From Narcine bancroftii (Eukaryota), in assembly GCF_036971445.1 (NCBI RefSeq), contig NC_091475.1, positions 94,178,001 through 94,242,000 on the forward strand: a stretch of DNA of 64,000 nucleotides, in the 5' to 3' direction. The notes under the pieces were generated by a model that had not been told where the DNA came from, did no database searches, and was given only the letters and a program-made list of their open reading frames with translations. Shown here one piece after another: positions 4,501 through 60,340 of this stretch (positions within the stretch are counted from its first letter, which is position 1; every line of letters starts with the position of its first letter). Made by a program: the position numbers and the translations under genes.

Positions 4501-7500
4501 TTAAGTCAAACTTAATTGCATGTACTTAACAAATGGAGTCCACTTCAGCTTATAAAAAGACATCTTATCTTGAATTGAGAAAGATATCTTTTCCATAATT
4601 AAACAGGATTTCATCTCTAAACACCACCTATCCAAAGTTAATATATTTCTATCTTTCCAAGTAAGCGCTATACATTTCTTGGTCACCGCTAAGGCTAAAT
4701 AGATAAAAGAAATCTGATAATCATTTAATCCTAAGTCAATTAATGATAGCATATTCCCTAATAAAAATATATCAAGTTCTAATACAACATATATATTATA
4801 TAAACTATTAAATATAGATTGAATACCTTTCCAAAACTGTTGCAATCGATCACAAAACCAAACAGTATGTAAAAAAAGTATTAGCCATCTGATCACAGCA
4901 AAAACAACAATCTAACTTACTAAGACCAAATTTTTTTAATTTCTCTGGTGTTAAATATAACTGATGTATCCATATCATCAGATGCAAGGATCGACAATGA
5001 GATAGACAACAAACTCGCCAAGGCAAATAGCGCCTTTGGAAGACTACACAAAAGAGTCTGGAAAAACAACCAACTGAAAAACCTCACAAAGATAAGCGTA
5101 TACAGAGCCGTTGTCATACCCACACTCCTGTTCGGCTCCGAATCATGGGTCCTCTACCGGCATCACCTACGGCTCCTAGAACGCTTCCACCAGCGTTGTC
5201 TCCGCTCCATCCTCAACATCCATTGGAGCGCTTTCATCCCTAACGTTGAAGTACTCGAGATGGCAGAGGTCGACAGCATCGAGTCCACGCTGCTGAAGAT
5301 CCAGCTGCGCTGGGTGGGTCACGTCTCCAGAATGGAGGACCATCGCCTTCCCAAGATCGTGTTATATGGCGAGCTCTCCACTGGCCACCGTGACAGAGGT
5401 GCACCAAAGAAAAGGTACAAGGGCTGCCTAAAGAAATCTCTTGGTGCCTGCCACATTGACCACCGCCAGTGGGCTGATATCGCCTCAAACCGTGCATCTT
5501 GGCGCCTCACAGTTTGGCGGGCAGCAACCTCCTTTGAAGAAGACCGCAGAGCTCACCTCACTGACAAAAGGCAAAGGAGGAAAAACCCAACACCCAACCC
5601 CAACCAACCATTTTTCCCCTGCAGCCGCTGCAACCGTGTCTGCCTGTCCCGCATCGGACTTGTCAGCCACAAACGAGCCTGCAGCTGACGTGGATTTTTA
5701 CCCCCTCCATAAATCTTCGTCCGCGAAGCCAAGCCAAAGAAAAAAATTATAATTAATCATCGCTAATCTAGCATTAATCAATTTCTGAATACTATTTTGA
5801 CAAATTTCCATCCAGGCTTCTTCAGCTATTGTAGAACCTAAATCTTTTTTCCCATTTCAAATTATCTTTATCCCAATCTTTCTTACTTTTATTTTCTTGT
5901 AAAATACAATATAAATCAGATATATACCCCTTTTTTGGTATTGAAAGCACATATTTCTCAAAACTAGTTTCAGGCAATAGAATCATATGCCGGCCACATA
6001 TCTGTTTTACAAATGATCTTAACTGATAATACACAAATACAGAGTTTCCGCTAATACCAAATTTCCTTTGTAGTTCCTCAAAAGAACAAAAACATCCTTC
6101 AAAAAAACAATCTGATAAATGTTTTATTCCTTTCCTTTCCCATTGTTTTAAAATGATATTGGAGACTGTAAAAGGAACAAGTTGATTATTATATAATGTC
6201 AATCGCCCAGACCACTTATTTTTAAGCCCCAATTTATTAAGTTTACTCGTCCATAAATTCATTAAATGTTTCAATATTGGTACATCATAAGTTCGTAATA
6301 AATTTTTATTCCATCAAAACAAAAATTCATGTGGAAATTTTTCTAAAATGACTGCCATTTCTATCTTTGTCCAACTAGGCGGATCCTCCATATTCATTAG
6401 AGCACTAAGAAATTTAAATTGAGCTGCCTCATAATAATATTGAAAATTTAGTAATCTTAAACCTCCAAATTGAAAATCCCACATCAACTTTCTCATTGCT
6501 ACCCTCGGAAATTTTCCCTTCCATAAGAATTCTCTAACTGCTTTATATAAATCCTTAAAAAAACATTTTTTTTTAAATAAAAAATTGATTGAAATAAATA
6601 TTGTATCCGAGGAAAAATATTCATTTTTTATAGTATTAATCCTCCCTAAAAAACCTAAAGGTAAATCCTTCCACCTAATCAAATCTAATTTAATATTTTT
6701 TATTAAGGGAAGATAATTAATTGAATATAAATCTTGATATTCTGTATTAACATTAATTTCTAAATATTTAATTTGTTTAGTCCACTTCAAATTTGTAATA
6801 TTTTTATATCTTGAGTAATCATCTTTACAAATTGACAAAATGTCACTTTTGGCCCAATTTACTTTATAACCCAATAATTGACCATAATTTTCTAAAGATT
6901 CTTGAATTGCTAGTAAAGAAATATCAGGATCCACCAAGTATAATAAGACATCATCAGCAAATAAATTAATCTTATATTCCTCATTCAAAACTCTCATACC
7001 CTTAACATTTTCATTTTGATGTATTAATTGTGCCAAAGGTTCAATAACTATAGCAAATAAAGAAGGAGACAATGGACATCCTTGTCTAGTAGACCTTGTT
7101 AAATCAAAAGATTCTGAAATCTGCACATTGGTGCAACTCTAGCCTTCGGACTATTATATAAAGCCTTTATCAATCCAATAAATGAGGAACCAAAGCAAAA
7201 CTTCTCAAGTACTTTAAAGAAAAACTTCCATTCCACTCTATCAAAAGCCTTTTCTGCATCTAATGAAACCATTAATGGATAATTCATTTGAGATTTAGAT
7301 TTATTTATCAAAGTAATTAAATGCAAAATATTATCAGACGCATATCTATTTTTTATAAATCCTGTTTGGTCTTTATGTATTATTTTAGGTAAATATTGAG
7401 CTAATCTATTAGCCATAACTTTAGCTACAATTTTATAATCTACATTTAGCAATGATATTGGTCGGTAAGAAGAAACCTGTAAAGGATCTTTATCTTTTTT

Positions 7501-35607: not shown

Positions 35608-37110
35608 TGTAGTGGCTCACCAGAGAATTAATCAAAGCAGCCCAGGAGGTTTTGAGTGACATCATGATGTCACAATGTGATGACATCATTTGGAACATGC
35701 AGCGCTTTAAAAAGCTGCGTGTGACTGAGTAAATGACAGATTGCAGCACCAAACCCAAACTTTTGAGCCTGTTCATCTGTTGCTTTCAAAACAATAATCC
35801 ATTTACACCTGCTTTTGAAATTCTTTCGCAAAGCAGTGTCCTTGTTTTATTGTCTTTGCAAAGGCTCTGGGCCAGAGCGTCTGGCTTGAGCAAAGCGCTA
35901 GCATTTTAAATGAGATCTGTTTTGTGAAGTGTTTGTTTGTGACCTTCACTGCCTCCACAATTTATCTCCTTCAAAAACATATCTATGTGCAATAGAAAAT
36001 ATGATATAATCCATCACACACATGACGGTGCTTCAGCCTTTCCAGCTACTGCATTGCAGATTCAACCACATGCATGTCGACATTGTCGGCCTGTTTCTGG
36101 TGTCTCAAGGGTCTGGATACTTGTTAACGGTCATTGACAGATTCTTTAGGTGGCCAGAGGTGGTTCCTATGATTGGCTCATTGACTGATTTATGCGCCGG
36201 AGCTTTTATTTCTGCCTGGGTATCTCGGTTCAGCCTACCCAGACACGTCACCTCTGACAGAGGCCCACAGTTTACCTCCACACTCTGGTATGTTTCATCA
36301 CCGCTGCTGGGAATTCAGCTCCACCACATGACAGCCTATCACCCACAGTCGAATGGCCTGGTGGAGTGGTTCCATAGGCACATGAAGGCTGCACTAATGG
36401 CCCACCTTCAGGGACCTGATTAGTCAGACAAGCTGCCCTGGATCCACCTAGGAATAAGAACGGCACCCATGGACGATCTCAACTCCTCGTAAGCCATGTT
36501 GATTTATGGAGCACCACTCATTGTACCTGGGGAGTTCGTGCCCGCAGCACACAAACAGGAGGTGCGGCCGACTGAAGACTTAAGCAGACTGCAGGAGCGG
36601 CTTGGAAAAATGGCCCCAGTTCCCACATCATGGCACAGAACAATGAAGCCCTTCATCCCAAAGGAACTCCAGGACTGTGAATTTGTGTTTGTGTGTAGAG
36701 GTACACACCGGCCACCCTTACAGAGGCTGATGTGCACCTTCAGAATCATATGATACAATCATACAACTTGTATATTGGACATTGGGGGGCATCCAGACAT
36801 TTATGATTGACCGACTAAAGCCTGCTCATCTTGACCTTGATTGCCCCTTGCCATGACCCCCTACATGAAGGCGCGGACGACCGCCAAAGAGCAGTGGACA
36901 GTAATGGCACGAGAGGTTTATCCTCCCATCACCTGAGGCTTAATTGAACCAGCTCGGGAGGTTCCGAGTGACGTCATGACATCACAATGCGATGATGTCA
37001 TTTGGAATGTGTGGGTTTTAAAAAAGCTGTGCGTGTCTGTTTGAGTAAAGGACTTTTTACTGAACTTCGACTCAACTACGTCTGATCATTTTCTCGTTCT
37101 TCATTTTGCA
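35608..37110 (+). mobile_element. Internally deleted CsRn1-like Gypsy: two LTR remnants flanking integrase only
   Basis: Direct repeats 35625-35735 / 36938-37050 (gagtgac.tcatga..tcacaatg.gatga..tcatttggaa). IN motifs HMHVDIVG, DRFFRWPE, TSDRGPQF, AYHPQSNGLVE. Confidence 0.85.
35776..36018 (-). mobile_element. 5' part of the long LTR family, nested in the Gypsy remnant
   Basis: The minus strand starts TGTGATGGATTATA. aaacacttc..aaaacagatctcatttaaaatgc matches 51721-51752. Confidence 0.75.
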
Positions 37111-53349: not shown

Positions 53350-56300
53350 CATTCCTCCTGCCCCCCCCCCCCAAAAATAGCACGAGATATTGCATATTGT
53401 TTATTCTGTTTACAAGCTGACTCCATGATTAGGTGTTGAACAAGGAGAAAAGCTGCTTCCAAATCATCAAAAGGTACAATGAATAGTATTGCCGTTTCAC
53501 TGCAACCAACTCAAAAACAGTTCTACACAAATTTTCGAGCTTCAGAATTAATTGTTCCAGTTTAGAAACACTACTACTTAAAATAAAACTATTTATTCTC
53601 ACTTCTGATTAAATGTTTCTAGATGCTGAAGGGAAAAGATCAAGAAGTCCTAGTGCAACTGCAGAGATTCGCAGACATAATCCAACAGGGTTTTCAGGAA
53701 TGAAGTAAGGGAATATTTCCTCAGATAGAGAACAATGGGCATTTGAGACTCCCTTCCATCCGATTTTAAACAGAAAAAAACCCAACTCTAAATATAATAT
53801 TAATGATAAGAGATACGAATGAAAATTTTAAAAATGCATTAATTTAGTGCAATTTTAAGCAAAAACTGGAATTTCCCCATGAAAAGTCACCAATAAGAGA
53901 TGAAGAGCAAATTGCAGGAACATAACTAATGGCAGATTGAGAATCTCCTACTGGCTAGGGAAGTGAGGAAGGAGGGAATGGAAATAACTAATCTGACAAC
54001 ATGACGGTACATGTCTCAACTCTGTCAGCTTCTTAAACTGAAGTTGAAATAATAAAACGATACAGGGTTTGCAAGGAATTCCCTTTGTACATTTCATTAT
54101 ACTCCTGAAAGCCTGCCCATATTGATAGAATGAACAACAATGTTGCCTTGAATTAAAATAAAATACTGTATAGGTTTGCATTTTTTATCATAAAAATGCA
54201 AAAAGGCATTATATCCTCTTGGGAAATGTCATGCGGCTTAGTGACGGATCGCAGGGAAGCCATGAAAAAAAAATGGACACTTTTCCAATACAACATCAGA
54301 GAAAATCTTTGGTCTTAATGTTCAAAAGGGAGTTAAATCCACCACTATGCAGTTAATAAATCACCTTACAAATAGAATCAAATCCACCTCACCTAAGAAT
54401 GGACTTTTATGAAATGTACTATTCATTCTCATGTTTTTAAATTAAAAATTAAAAAAAAAAATCCAAGGCCACATTCAATTATTGGATATATAAAATAAAA
54501 ACTGCAAATAACCATCCCAGTGCATGGCACACACAAAAGACTGTCAAAATGATCATTTACTAATGAACTCCACTATTGCAGTGAACTGGAATTCACTGTC
54601 TGTGTGTTGTTCAGATGGCTGGCTCCTCCCATGGCTCTACCCTCACCTACCCCAATATAAACCCTGGTTTTCCCGCCTTACCTCAGATTCACCTGAGGAC
54701 TATTTTGTCTACCAGCCATTGATTGTAAGTTATTAAAAGCTTGTTTGTACTCCTCACTTGTCCCTGAGTGCAAGCAGTTGTGTTACAATTTTAATAGCTT
54801 AATTTTGAAGCAGGATGGAAGCCAGGCATGCTCCTGGTTGACCCTCTGTCCCCTGAGGCCCTGGAGGAATTCACCTCTTGGCTGGAGTGCTTCCAGTCCA
54901 CCTGACAGCCACACAAGATGTCTTCAACTCCAATAGTCTCTGGAGATCTGCACTTCACTCACGAGTCGTCCCCAAGTGGTTTGCTGTCATCAAAGACTGT
55001 GTTCCTTATGAGTCGGCCATAGAAGACTGAAGGCCCACTACATGAGGCTCCAGAACAATGTGCTGGTGAGGTACCAGCTCTCTCAATGTTGGCAGTGTTC
55101 GGGTGAGATGCTGGACAATTATGTCCTTGAACTGTGGGCCCTGAATAGAAAATGCCACTATAAAGCAGTCACAGCCCGGGTGAGAGAGGAGGAACAAATC
55201 CAGGACACCCTCGTGGCAGGAGTGAGGTTGATGTAAATGAGGCAGTGACTGCTAGATTTGGGGAATAAAGACTTGACCAGCATCCTGGAGCTGGCAAAAG
55301 TACATGAACAGGCCCAACTGGTAGCTGACGACCTCGCAGGCAAATGTAGCGCCTTTTAAGAGGATCAGGTCAATGAGGCACCAGTGACCCCTGCAGCTCC
55401 AGCCACGCATGACCAGGGTTGCTACTTCTGTGGACGGGCAGAGAATCCCAGCACCCAATCCCCCACAAAGGATGCTGTGTGCTCAGGATGCATTAAGCAA
55501 GGACACTGGGTGAAGGTCTGGAATCCAAAGATGGTGAGTGCATATGCAACCCAAGAATTGTCATTTGACTCGTGCCTGAGTCCTGAAATGCCGGCCTCAG
55601 TCTCTCCGTGCTGCTCTCTGCCAGCATCTTGCTGCGCCTCATGGCAAGACCCACCACCGGAAGTAAAGCATCGCAGGAAGCAATGGTATCCATTTTGCCT
55701 AGAAGTCATCACCACATAGTCCTCCTTTGGATCAAGATGAAAGTCAGCCATCTTATTGCACCTCGAGATCGACACCATCTTGTCTGCCTGTGGACCATGA
55801 GGAGAGTGTAGATATCAGCATGGGGAAAAATGGGGTTTCCGGAGCACTAGCATCAGTCATCCTGAATCAGGCAATACCTCGCCAATTGAATAACTCGACA
55901 ATAGAGGTGAGGGTAAATGGACACTTCACTGATTGCTTGGTTGACACTGGCTCCAATGAGAGCTTTATAAACTCTGTGACGGCTCTGTGGTACAACTTAA
56001 AAATGTACCCGACAGACTATGATATTTTCCCAGCTTCACATCCAAGGATATTGTTAGTACATCTAACTGTAAAAGAGGGGGGAGGGGGAGTTATGTAAGT
56101 TCCGATTGTATGTACTGAAGGATTTGTGTGCTCCTATGTTGCTGGGCCTGGACTTTTTGTGTCACATTAAAAGCATGATCAATAGTCTGGCCCACTCCCT
56201 CCAATCACAGTGCAGAATGGAAGGTCCCAAAAGCTGGACTCCACATGTGATCTCTCCACCATAATTATTGATCCCCCCCCCCGCACTGTTTCCAAATCAG

Positions 56301-58035
56301 ACTCCCGATTGCAAACCAATAGCTACAAAGAGCAGGCAATACAGTATGGGCATCAAGAATTTATCACAGCCAAGACATAGTGGCTGATCAAAGAAAATAT
56401 CATTGAACCTACCAAGAGCCTGTATGGAGTCCAGGTTGTAGACATGAAAGTGGAAGAAAGGTCCAGACTAGTGATTGACTATAGCCAAACAATTAATCAT
56501 TTCACACTCCTGGATGCATACCCCTCCCTTGAATTTTGGACATGATAAATGAAATTGCGCTATATTGGGTCTATTCGACCATTGACCTTAAAGCTTCATA
56601 CCATCTGTTCCAACGACCGTCCATACACAGCATTTGAGGCAGATGGATGGCTCTATTAGTTTTGGAGGGTTCCTTTTGATATCATTAATGGGGTCTCAGT
56701 CTTCCAGAGACAGATGCACAAAATAGTCAACGAATGCAGATTGAAGGCCACCTTCCCATATCTCAACAATGTCACCATTTGTGGACACTCTCTGGAAAAC
56801 CACGACACCAACCTCCAGAGGTTTCTTCACATGGCCAAGGCCCTGAATCTCACATACAACTTGAGTATGTGCATGTTCCAGACTAAATGTCTGGTGATTC
56901 TGGGCTAGGTGGTGGAGAATGGCATCATTTGCCCTGATCCCGATCAAGTATGCTGCCTGTTAGACCTCCTGATCCCGAAGACCATGAAAGCCTAAAGGAG
57001 GCTCCTGGGCTTCTTTTCTTACTATCCCTCACTATGCGGATAAAGTCCACACCCCTCTTAAAATCTATCTCCTTCTCATTATTGGCTGAAACCCAAGTAC
57101 CTTTCGATGATGTTCAGAGCTACATCGCAAAAGCCACCATGCATGCGGTGGACGAGAATGCACCCTTCTAGGTGAAAAGCGATGCCTCTGACATAGCTCT
57201 GGCCACTACCCTTAACCAGGCAGGCAGGCCTGTTGCCTTTTTATCCCGCACTCTACAAAGCCAAGAATTTCGGAACCCATCTGTGGAGAAAGAGGCTCAA
57301 GCCATTGTAGAGGCTATCAGGCACAGGAGGCCTTACCTGGCTGGCAGAAAATTTACATCGACTAGAGATCGGTGGCATTTATGTTTAATAATGCAAAAAG
57401 AGGCAAAATAAAAAAATGACAAGATCGCCAGATGGAGGATACAACATAGCATACAGGCCAGGTACTCACAATGAACCTCCAGATGCCCTGTCAAAAGGAA
57501 GCTGTGTCTCTCCACATACCATGATGAGGTTTGCCACCTAGGCATCACCCGCATGGCTCATTTTGTCAAGGCACTTAACTGGCCCTACTCCATTAAGGAT
57601 ATAAGGGAAATGACAAGGTCCTGTCTGGTCTGTGTGGAGTGCAAACTGCACTTCTACTGCCCTGACAAAGCACACCAATAAAGGCAACCTGCCAAAACAT
57701 GACCACCACCATGGTCATAAGGGCCTTGCACTCTTTTTTCACCCTGTTTAGGTATCCCAGCTATATCCATAGTGACCAGGGCTCATCATTTATGAGTGAA
57801 GAGCTATGCCAGTACCTGCTCATAAGAGGCATTGCCTCAAGCAGGACGACTAGCTACAATCCCCTGGGAAATCGACAAGTTGAAAAAGAGAACACGACTG
57901 TATAGAAGGGTATGAAATCAGCTCTCTGGTCAAAAGGCCTTCCAAACTCACACTGGGAAGTAGTCCTACCCACGGCGCTCCACTCCATAAGTTTGCTCCT
58001 CTGCACAGCGACCAACACAACTCCTCACAAATATA

Positions 58036-58420
58036 CAGTGCTCTCAATAATGTTTGGAGCAAAGACAGTTTTTTTCCCTTTCTTTGGCCCTGTGCTCCAT
58101 TGTTGTAAATTTGCAATCAAATATTTCACATGTAATTAAAGTGCACATTCCAGATTTTATTCAAGGATATTTGTACACACATTGGTTTGACCATGTAGTA
58201 ATTACAGCACTTTTTATACATCGTCCTCTCATTTCAGGGCACCATACTGTTTAGAACATTTGGCTTCACAGGTGCTTGTGAGTACTCGGGTATATTTAAT
58301 TGCTTAATTGGTGCAGATGTAGGCTGGCTTCTAAACTTTTGATCACCTTTGAAGTCTGTAGTTACTGTTTTTCAACATGAGGACCAGTTGTGCTAAAGTC
58401 TATCAAATAAACCATTATGG
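58036..58420 (+). mobile_element. Tc1-like left end (IR/DR and transposase start) inside the Gypsy integrase
   Basis: TA-CAGTGCTCTCAATAATGTTTGG, an inner repeat cagggcaccatactgtttaga at 58235, then ATGAGGACC. Confidence 0.65.
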
Positions 58421-58671
58421 GCATCCCGGGTACGAGAATTGCTGGATAAAGTATGGGCTGTGGGGGAGCATGAACACCGGCGTCCCGAAGAGGTCGGGGT
58501 GCCGGCGTTGGGAGTCCAGACCCACAGCCGTTCAGCCAAAGGCCCTACAATGACTGAGGAAGAAGAGGAACATACCTTATTGGAATTCATCCAGGAGGAG
58601 GAGCTTGCAGTTAAAGGAGGTGGATCTCAAAAAGTGAAAGTGGAATCTGGAATGGATTCAGTAAATCAGTG

Positions 58672-58743
58672 AACCGGTGCGGACTCGAAAGGCCAACATG
58701 GCCTGTTTCCACTCCGTAAATGGTTATATGGTTATATGGTTAT
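58672..58743 (+). mobile_element. CR1-type 3' tail with (ATGGTTAT)x3
   Basis: gcggactcgaaaggccaacatggcctgtttcc..aaatggttatatggttatatggttat. Confidence 0.7.
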
Positions 58744-59769
58744 ATATGTTTGCGTTCAAGAGGAAATCCATGTCTGGGATTACTCTTCTGGTTCAGCTAA
58801 TGGCACCAGGGCCAGTCCTGGTAGGAAAGGATGTAAGGAGGAGCAAGACAAATGCTCTGATCAAGAAGGTGCACCTGCTGCACGCCAACCCAATGTATTC
58901 CTATGTGGTATACCTTGATGACAGAGAGGACACCATCTCAATCAGAGACCTGGCACCTGCCGGAGCTGAGGATACAATATCTCAAATGGCCCAGGAACCT
59001 CCTAGTACCCCACCCAGGGTTCCGGTTGACACTGCTTGGGAAGTAGGTCAATCCACTCTGCACCCAAAGCCATAGCCCTCGAGACCATAGGGGGTGCAGG
59101 AAGTTCAGGAAGCCCAAAGTCCTCCAGTACTGAGGTGCTCAACCAGAATAACTACACCCCCTGACAGATTTGTAAACTATTTTTTTTAATGAATGGTCTC
59201 TGTTTTTCACCCACAGGCTCTATTCTGAAGGAAGGGGGAAACACAGTGAACTGGAATTCACTCTCTATATATTGTTCAGGAGGCTGGCTCCACCTTCCCC
59301 TAGCCAAATATAAACCCTGGTTTTCCCGCCTTACCTCAAATTCACCTGAGGACTATTGTATCTACCGGCTGTTGATTGTAAGCTATTAAAAACATGTTTG
59401 TACTCCTAACTTGTCTCTGAGTGAAATCAATTGTGTTACAACTATGGACCTACCGGTTTGTTGTCTTTTTTTGCAGAAGAGTTGAGTAGAGTAGTTGTGT
59501 ATTCCTTTTGGTGTTTGTTGCCTGTGGTTTGAAATCGAGCTCCAGTGTAGACCAAGGGGAGGGTTCGGAGTCGGGTATCAAGAGCTCCGGTATAGGCTGA
59601 GGGGAAGGTTTAGAATCAGGACTCTGGTGTTGGGAGCTTTGGGATAGGCAGAGAGATTCAGTGGCACCTGTTCTTGAACTGTGAGACCATGGCATCTGTT
59701 CAAAAATATATGGTGTGGGAGGGCCATGTGGTTGGCACTGCTGGGCTGAAAAGGAGGGGCTGCTCCTGA

Positions 59770-60340
59770 GTAAACAATAGTGCACTGAAGAGTGTAGAGG
59801 AGCAGTAAGATCTGGGAATACAGATTTGTTGTTCCCTAAAGGAGGTGTCGCATGTGGTCTGGGTTGTAATGAAAGCTTTTGGCATCCTAGCCTATATAAA
59901 TCAAAGTATTGAGTATAGGAGTTGGGATGTTATGTTGAAGTTGTTTAAGACATTGGTGAGGCCAAATTTGGAATATTATGCAGTTCTGGTTGTCTAACTG
60001 CAGAAATGATACCATTAAGATTGAAAGAGTGCAGAGAAGATTTACTAGGATGTTGCTGGGTCTTCAGGAGTTGAGTTACAGGGAACGATTGAACAGGTCT
60101 GGACTTTATTCCTTGGAGCGAAGAAGAATAAGAGTAGATTTGATAGAGGTTTACAAGATTATTGTGAATGTGGTCTCATTATTGATTTTTCAGAATAGAT
60201 TGGATAGACACATGGCTGGGAGAGATCTGGAGAGTATGGAATGGGAGCAGATCAATGGGACTAGCAAAACAATGGCCTGCACAGACTAGAAAGGCTGAAT
60301 AGCCTGTTTTCTGTTTTATAGCATTCAATGGTTCTAGATT
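59770..60340 (+). mobile_element. CR1 3' fragment with internal deletion
   Basis: LFKTLVRPNLEY, IERVQRRFTRML, GLYSLERRR motifs, then the tail. Confidence 0.85.

Follow-up and report, generated by a model that had tools for sequence, protein, structure and literature searches.

A clade of Gypsy retrotransposons without a chromodomain, represented by a decayed copy in the 64,000-nt (64-kb) stretch of Narcine bancroftii DNA analysed here (the window), has no tRNA-type primer-binding site (PBS) and carries in its place the complement of a segment of its own LTR. This complementarity is real and clade-wide, and self-priming of reverse transcription in some form is very probable. We propose, with a probability of about 0.6, that these elements prime with the capped first ~50–55 nt of their own RNA, cut behind a ...UAAA(A) motif; the priming, the cut and the start site are read here from genomic sequence rather than from RNA. 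What is new is the pair of mapped boundaries pointing to a long leader primer.

Structure of the window element

The element and its features are as follows.

54572-54576, + strand: left target-site duplication (TSD), 5 bp, ACTAT, identical to the 5-mer at 59441-59445
54577-59440, + strand: decayed Gypsy LTR element, with TG...CA LTRs, TSD and polypurine tract all present
54577-54787, + strand: 5' LTR, 211 bp, TG...TTACA, both ends agreeing across 30 family copies
54656-54661, + strand: predicted TATA box, TATAAA, with an Inr-like A 29 nt downstream
54685-54688, + strand: putative transcription start, i.e. the U3/R border and proposed 5' end of the primer, from the Inr-like TCAGATT and fold-back stops
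54726-54738, + strand: segment S, 3' end of the proposed self-primer, containing ATTAAA (54732-54737)
54741-54777, + strand: hairpin predicted by RNA folding in the loop closed by the S/PBS duplex
54789-54801, + strand: putative PBS, antisense to S and separated from the LTR by a single unpaired A
54815-59170, + strand: decayed gag-protease-RT-RNase H-integrase region, from tblastn with the sister-family polyprotein
58044-58745, no strand assigned: foreign insertion of ~700 bp splitting the integrase region, a gap between the tblastn matches 57675-58043 and 58746-59072
59227-59241, + strand: polypurine tract, from sequence
59242-59440, + strand: 3' LTR, 199 bp, from sequence comparison
59379-59391, + strand: 3' LTR copy of S, perfect complement of the PBS
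59441-59445, + strand: right TSD, 5 bp, ACTAT, matching the left 5-mer

The two LTRs are identical at 173/199 positions, and the coding region (54815-59170) is interrupted by many stops and frameshifts. The 5' LTR ends in TTACA, followed by a single A and then TTTTAATAGCTTA, with no TGG. As the original prediction had claimed, TTTTAATAGCTTA (54789-54801) matches the reverse complement of 59379-59391 in the 3' LTR without a mismatch; with the 5' LTR copy (54726-54738) it pairs 13/13, including one G-U, which results from a C-to-T change in that copy of S. Also borne out are the positions that it gave for TATAAA at 54656, which we take to be a TATA box, for ATTAAA within the paired segment and for gag about 13 nt further on, the gag ATG lying at 54815, 13 nt past the PBS segment. 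Within the window, neither the 13-mer nor its complement has a second occurrence. In 3000 LTR shuffles, Watson-Crick pairing anchored at the LTR end never exceeded 11 pairs (0/3000 at 13); when G-U was counted as well, 6/3000 reached at least 13 pairs.

Other sequences in and around the element were noted. The insertion at 58044-58745 terminates in (GGTTATAT) repeats at 58717-58745 and is probably a LINE or SINE 3' end; an insertion in the LTRs of locus L061, a young copy of sister family B (below), has a similar tail at its end. Just downstream of the element, 59960-60289 holds a fragment of a LINE reverse-transcriptase tail, presumably of CR1/L2 type, and a weak integrase-like match to the sister-family polyprotein (30% identity) at 36061-36366 marks another retroelement remnant. 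A TTACCT motif, resembling an antisense splice donor or the U1 5' end, lies just upstream of the predicted start in the window (54677-54686) and in L088, L089 and L093, whose LTRs are otherwise unlike.

The complementarity is kept across the family and its sister families

The window family (family A) was sampled through the best 30 loci of the source genome, with 40 scored from 3280 candidates. A TGG PBS was found in 0/30 copies, so none was deleted in the window copy, and a TGG lost from this copy only, the case that would have undone the original prediction, does not hold. Own S and leader pair at 11 or more of 13 positions in 27/30 copies, and perfectly in 9.

With the RNase H stretch as query, 20 regions of the source genome were recovered, 17 of them with LTR pairs, which belong to family B (16) and family C (1). 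Family B is young: its LTRs are 240 bp and 92-100% identical within pairs, one of the 16 copies is disrupted by an insertion, and exact 5-bp TSDs flank 80/89 two-LTR copies. The family-B LTR gave no blastn match to the window LTR, and the leaders of families B and C are nonetheless the complement of a segment of their own LTR, in the same geometry despite the different LTRs. One young family-B copy (L061) has the same ~300-bp LINE-like insertion in both LTRs (1045-1557, 5993-6506), so the element was copied with it. Two more related families in the source genome (L348, L352, L355, L362) have S ending in AATAAAA and complements of 16-17 nt.

A single 1408-aa frame with CCHC-like motifs is present in one family-B copy. 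Pfam gave the domain order gag-PR-RT-RH-IN, the same order mapped onto the window element, and the best PDB match of the polyprotein was Ty3 RT (E 2e-51). No Chromo domain was matched by Pfam on this ORF and none is listed among its 120 homologues; none of the 16 chromodomain loci returned for the source genome has pol sequence within 1.5 kb. The closest of the 120 listed homologues is labelled Narcine bancroftii (99%), and others come from rays, sharks, the anemone Actinostola, Trichuris, Trichinella and many other assemblies. A gag cluster search (Atlas) returned only generic CCHC/Ty3-capsid clusters.

Compensatory pairing across the clade

Scans of metagenome and MAG contigs yielded 89 external loci, of which 67 were examined, the remaining 22 being mostly short or flankless. 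These 67 comprised 19 true LTR pairs, 6 circular-contig overlaps and 40 without a pair, while 2 had other repeats on top; 11 of the 19 LTR-pair loci were scored, leaving out 8 near-identical copies. A viral contig collection yielded no relatives. Loci L161-L168 are animal retrotransposons inside bacterial MAG records, probably host contamination of the bins.

Five elements from the source genome and the 11 external ones, some related to each other, were then compared (16 elements × 13 positions). Watson-Crick pairs occupy 205/208 cells, with more than one pair type in 10/13 columns; with the partner slid, 46-85/208 cells pair, a contrast that is inflated because S had been chosen as the best-pairing stretch. 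The LTRs of the 16 elements are largely unrelated, and each leader pairs over at most 8 nt with the LTR of any other element, as against complements of 13-17 nt within elements. A shuffle test gave 0/1000 for 11/13 elements. The complementary run is 14 nt in L082, L155 has one mismatch, and L089 and L091, which belong to one family, differ by one compensated pair. A TGG PBS occurs in 0/16 elements. Invariant across the clade are the single unpaired A after the LTR, a leader beginning TTT(T)A and an S ending TAAA(A), and the end of S lies 32-65 nt before the LTR end. In 14 folds the S/PBS duplex had a mean pairing probability of 0.79-0.99, and a helix directly 3' of S was enriched (mean pairing 0.66 vs 0.33 in shuffles, 14 elements).

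The pairing itself is thus seen in the source genome and in metagenome contigs, and relatives keep it, with compensatory changes, both family-wide and clade-wide. This supports the earlier idea of tRNA-independent priming from an internal LTR segment.

In the LTRs of L121, L145 and L155, a pyrimidine tract with TTTCAG, resembling a splice or trans-splice acceptor, lies 10-25 nt upstream of S; in these hosts the 5' part of the primer may be made by splicing.

Fold-back junctions on the side of the predicted start site

In family B, 261 junctions run past the PBS as the complement of the LTR itself (0 for a reversed-pattern control), beside at least 825 normal junctions, both being exact-pattern counts. 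S is intact on the left in 124 fold-backs. Among 30 such loci, both arms reach LTR nt 1 in 14, and 11 of these 14 complete palindromes have exact 5-bp TSDs, indicating that integrase inserted them. The ~430-bp palindromic insertions, with two U3 ends and 5-bp TSDs (L205-L233 in genome G000, e.g. C1:271099554-271102636), represent a class of integrated reverse-transcription by-product; there may be dozens of them, and they could give rise to hairpins or dsRNA. Eight near-identical copies of one fold-back junction are clustered at G000:C11:145898097-147307559, three each at ~330-bp spacing, which suggests later tandem amplification.

We read 200 family-B fold-back rows by eye (250 matched). The LTR is left early in 38 of these, 17 at nt 148-155, 21 across the preceding 33 nt and 0 in the following 11 nt. 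The start predicted from TATA/Inr spacing, A153, falls within the nt 148-155 cluster. The pile-up has p ~ 4e-7, with ~12 distinct landing sites, so that the effective count is below 38. It lies 35-40 nt upstream of S, and the TATA-to-S spacing is ~65-70 nt in families A and B. The original prediction had guessed that S is not at the transcript 5' end; in agreement, the fold-back fossils would place the RNA start ~40 nt upstream of S. About 80% of the fold-backs pass the start site, mostly reaching LTR nt 1, a behaviour that a plain DNA hairpin explains equally. Assembled RNA contigs from runs X1-X3, compared with a sister-family copy, contained no start, end or poly(A) junction.

Fold-back junctions at the edge of S

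On the other side, joints from U5 into internal sequence in family B are concentrated near the S end (nt 192): 40/46 map to nt 179-202 and 0/46 to the start-site zone, at loci partly selected for having no full left LTR. Fourteen of the 46, with nt below 191, are contained in S or sit past it, and the stop is therefore no single sharp cut. Snap-backs resuming at the end of S make up 19/100 rows, and L451 lacks exactly the stretch from the start site to the S end. In 89 two-LTR copies there was no mutation hot spot at either boundary, the predicted transfer points. Linkage among U3, R, U5, gag and 3' internal variants did not locate strand transfer, owing to too few recombinants and to CpG recurrences.

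Most fossil counts come from family B. For family A, 30 loci gave 8 fold-backs; read by eye, the other 22 loci are 16 plain antisense LTRs, 4 normal junctions of other families and 2 others. One of the 8, L336, starts on the left at nt 161, with S ending at 162, and stops at nt 112, equivalent to 54688 (predicted start 109), and so shows both primer boundaries in one window-family fold-back. Stops across the 8 are scattered: three lie at nt 137, 112 and 95, and the remaining five coincide with the LTR start or run past it.

These two boundaries bear on where the primer comes from. An unlikely alternative is that the self-primer is supplied by the R copy at the 3' end or by a second RNA, either a co-packaged genome or a short LTR transcript, and not by the 5' end of the same molecule. 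Since S lies in R, both RNA ends carry it; most fold-backs continue through U3, and 14/46 joints reach into S. Moreover, the palindrome arms of 2/30 complete-left copies (L216, L227) differ at several sites that look subfamily-specific, which indicates that two molecules met. A U3-bearing primer, however, does not predict early stops at the predicted start with none just beyond it, and no minus-side joint (0/46) lies near the start site, which is where strong-stop DNA would be expected to stop if the template were uncut. Two RNAs priming each other from their 5' ends would look the same here as priming in cis.

Less probable again is that the fossils merely reflect DNA hairpins and their repair by the host and say nothing about the primer, leaving only the complementarity informative. 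Any plus strand bearing the PBS can fold onto S, microhomology of 0-2 nt in 39/44 scored U5-side joints fits end-joining, and opening of a DNA hairpin by a host nuclease could produce the same spread of joints. Against this, the exact TSDs on 11/14 palindromes mark integrase products, and a DNA hairpin provides no cause for stops at the predicted start site.

Poly(A) signal and tRNA alternatives

It had also been suggested that the pairing could occlude the 5' poly(A) signal. In 10/16 elements S contains A(A/T)TAAA, which is the sole such hexamer of the LTR in families A-C. Six of the 16 segments have no hexamer, however, and in L081 the only AATAAA of the LTR lies outside the duplex, so occlusion cannot be the general reason and this claim was not upheld; it is at most secondary, with a possible side benefit in the ray families. 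In HIV-1, the 5' poly(A) hairpin buries the hexamer in a duplex near the RNA 5' end; this hairpin is local to R/U5, and HIV primes on tRNA-Lys3. The clade differs in that the duplex partner is the PBS and in the six segments without a hexamer.

The leader was also checked against host tRNAs, a match to which would have counted against the original prediction, using a partial set of 27 distinct sequences and 13 anticodons that does not include tRNA-Ile(AAU). The best match of the window leader within this set was 5 nt Watson-Crick or 9 nt with G-U, the latter to tRNA-Asn and ending in the anticodon arm. Separately, a likeness to a tRNA anticodon loop (CT-NNN-AA) is seen in the S of families A, B and C and in that of L088, either by chance or as a relic of half-tRNA priming; we weighed this likeness and did not favour it.

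We give little credence to a duplex that mainly hides the 5' LTR poly(A) signal while another primer is used, such as a 5' half-tRNA with an S-like anticodon loop. The hexamer positions in families A-C, the 9-nt tRNA-Asn match and the tRNA-Ile(AAU) missing from the scanned set speak for it, but the hexamer-less segments and L081 do not fit, the duplex always begins exactly 1 nt past the LTR CA, which is the register of a primer, and the run-on copies consist of LTR and not tRNA, with each PBS tracking its own family's LTR and no shared tRNA. Half-tRNA priming is described for the Copia lineages Osser, Bryco and Bianca, which have no TGG at the PBS (PMC6317226). The clade shares with them the missing TGG and, in some S segments, the anticodon-loop likeness, but the best tRNA match in the partial set is 9 nt with G-U, as opposed to 13-17 nt Watson-Crick with its own LTR.

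Comparison with known self-priming elements

The Tf1 primer is described as the RNA's initial 11 bases, released by an RNase H cut between bases 11 and 12 (PMC7175516), and Tf1/sushi elements as chromoviruses whose 5'-terminal self-primer sits in a three-duplex pretzel (PMC10085805, PMC4600332, PMC5341516). Like the clade studied here, Tf1/Tf2 of Schizosaccharomyces pombe, Tj1, Tosmo1-3 and other Tf1/sushi elements are reported to have no tRNA PBS and a PBS that complements a 5' LTR segment. Further likenesses to the published descriptions are the need for RNA cleavage to obtain a 3'-OH, the Ty3/Gypsy domain order and a helix beside the predicted cut. The differences are several. Tf1 primes with its first 11 nt, whereas S of the clade apparently lies ~40 nt from the RNA 5' end, so that the primer would be ~52 nt long; neither the family-B ORF nor any of the 120 listed homologues (0/120) shows a chromodomain; S ends in a conserved UAAA(A), overlapping the poly(A) hexamer in 10/16 elements; and the clade folds did not contain the full three-duplex form, with no consistent two-sided pairing next to the PBS. 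Judged by these features and not by a tree, the clade would work like Tf1, lacks the chromodomain and appears to place its primer differently.

That the clade has plain Tf1 geometry, with the RNA starting at S, a primer of 13-17 nt and a wrong TATA/Inr assignment, is very unlikely: Tf1 itself uses its first 11 bases (PMC7175516), the RNA start here is a prediction and a 13-17 nt duplex would call for no trimming at plus-strand transfer, but 261 junctions copy LTR upstream of S, the early stops pile up where TATA/Inr spacing predicts the start, 35-40 nt upstream of S, and TATA and S are ~65-70 nt apart in families A and B.

Self-priming has also been predicted for plant Tcn1 chromoviruses and for TAR (Houba/Osr-1) Copia elements by the same criterion, at least 10 nt of LTR/leader complementarity, so the trick is reported to have arisen outside Tf1/sushi (PMC6317226). 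Those cases concern other lineages and hosts, and the accessible text gives no primer length or cut site for them (PMC6317226). Further elements that lack a PBS are reported in PMC6934838 and PMC5006619, and nothing on the present clade was found in the accessible parts of PMC3601003, PMC12471100, PMC7472051 and PMC2774666. The literature search, which had most subscription literature, Repbase and GyDB outside its reach, found no paper on self-priming in this clade.

The clade may correspond to Cigr-1, as short LTRs, a single gag-pol ORF, a CCHC gag and marine animal hosts fit; this name is a lead only, because the match is to the description and not to Cigr-1 sequence. Cigr-1 is reported from Ciona and molluscs (PMC6238403).

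Proposed mechanism

Based on these data, we propose a plausible mechanism for priming with the capped 5' leader. Its starting point is the observed lack of a tRNA-type TGG site together with the 13-17 nt LTR/leader complement kept with compensatory changes. Transcription would start ~30 nt past the TATA box and ~40 nt upstream of S. Pairing of S with the PBS is predicted by folding to close a loop of 33-66 nt, which often starts with a small helix. On the model of Tf1, a nuclease (RNase H or a different enzyme) would then cut S at its 3' edge, or a few nt short of that edge within S, to yield the 3'-OH. Minus strong-stop DNA would end near the S edge and be transferred via the short remainder of R. 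The fossils suggest that plus-strand synthesis often passes the still-attached primer as far as the cap, after which the plus strand may snap back or jump, generating insertions that are palindromic or chimeric. As a side effect in the ray families, the S/PBS duplex would also mask the sole poly(A) hexamer that the 5' LTR contains.

A fuller version combines these elements: a widespread animal Gypsy lineage outside the chromoviruses would have evolved tRNA-free priming independently of Tf1, using the whole capped ~52-nt leader cut behind the poly(A) hexamer, with one duplex both making the primer and removing the 5' poly(A) signal, at the cost that about one quarter of U5-PBS junctions in a young family are fold-back or palindromic. 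This combination is tentative, and we rate it slightly below an even chance.

Implications

To our knowledge, self-primed reverse transcription has been proven only for Tf1 and is treated as the mark of one chromovirus group. A second lineage, one that lacks the chromodomain, suggests that elements freed themselves from host tRNAs and tRNA-fragment silencing more than once; among its RT relatives are proteins assigned to rays, sharks, a sea anemone and the nematodes Trichuris and Trichinella. A long internal primer also raises a problem absent in Tf1, namely how plus-strand synthesis halts inside the primer, and the fossils suggest that this halt often fails, giving rise to palindromic insertions. 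Fold-back junctions also make it possible to locate RNA start and cut sites with nothing but a genome assembly, and supply exact coordinates for a bench test.
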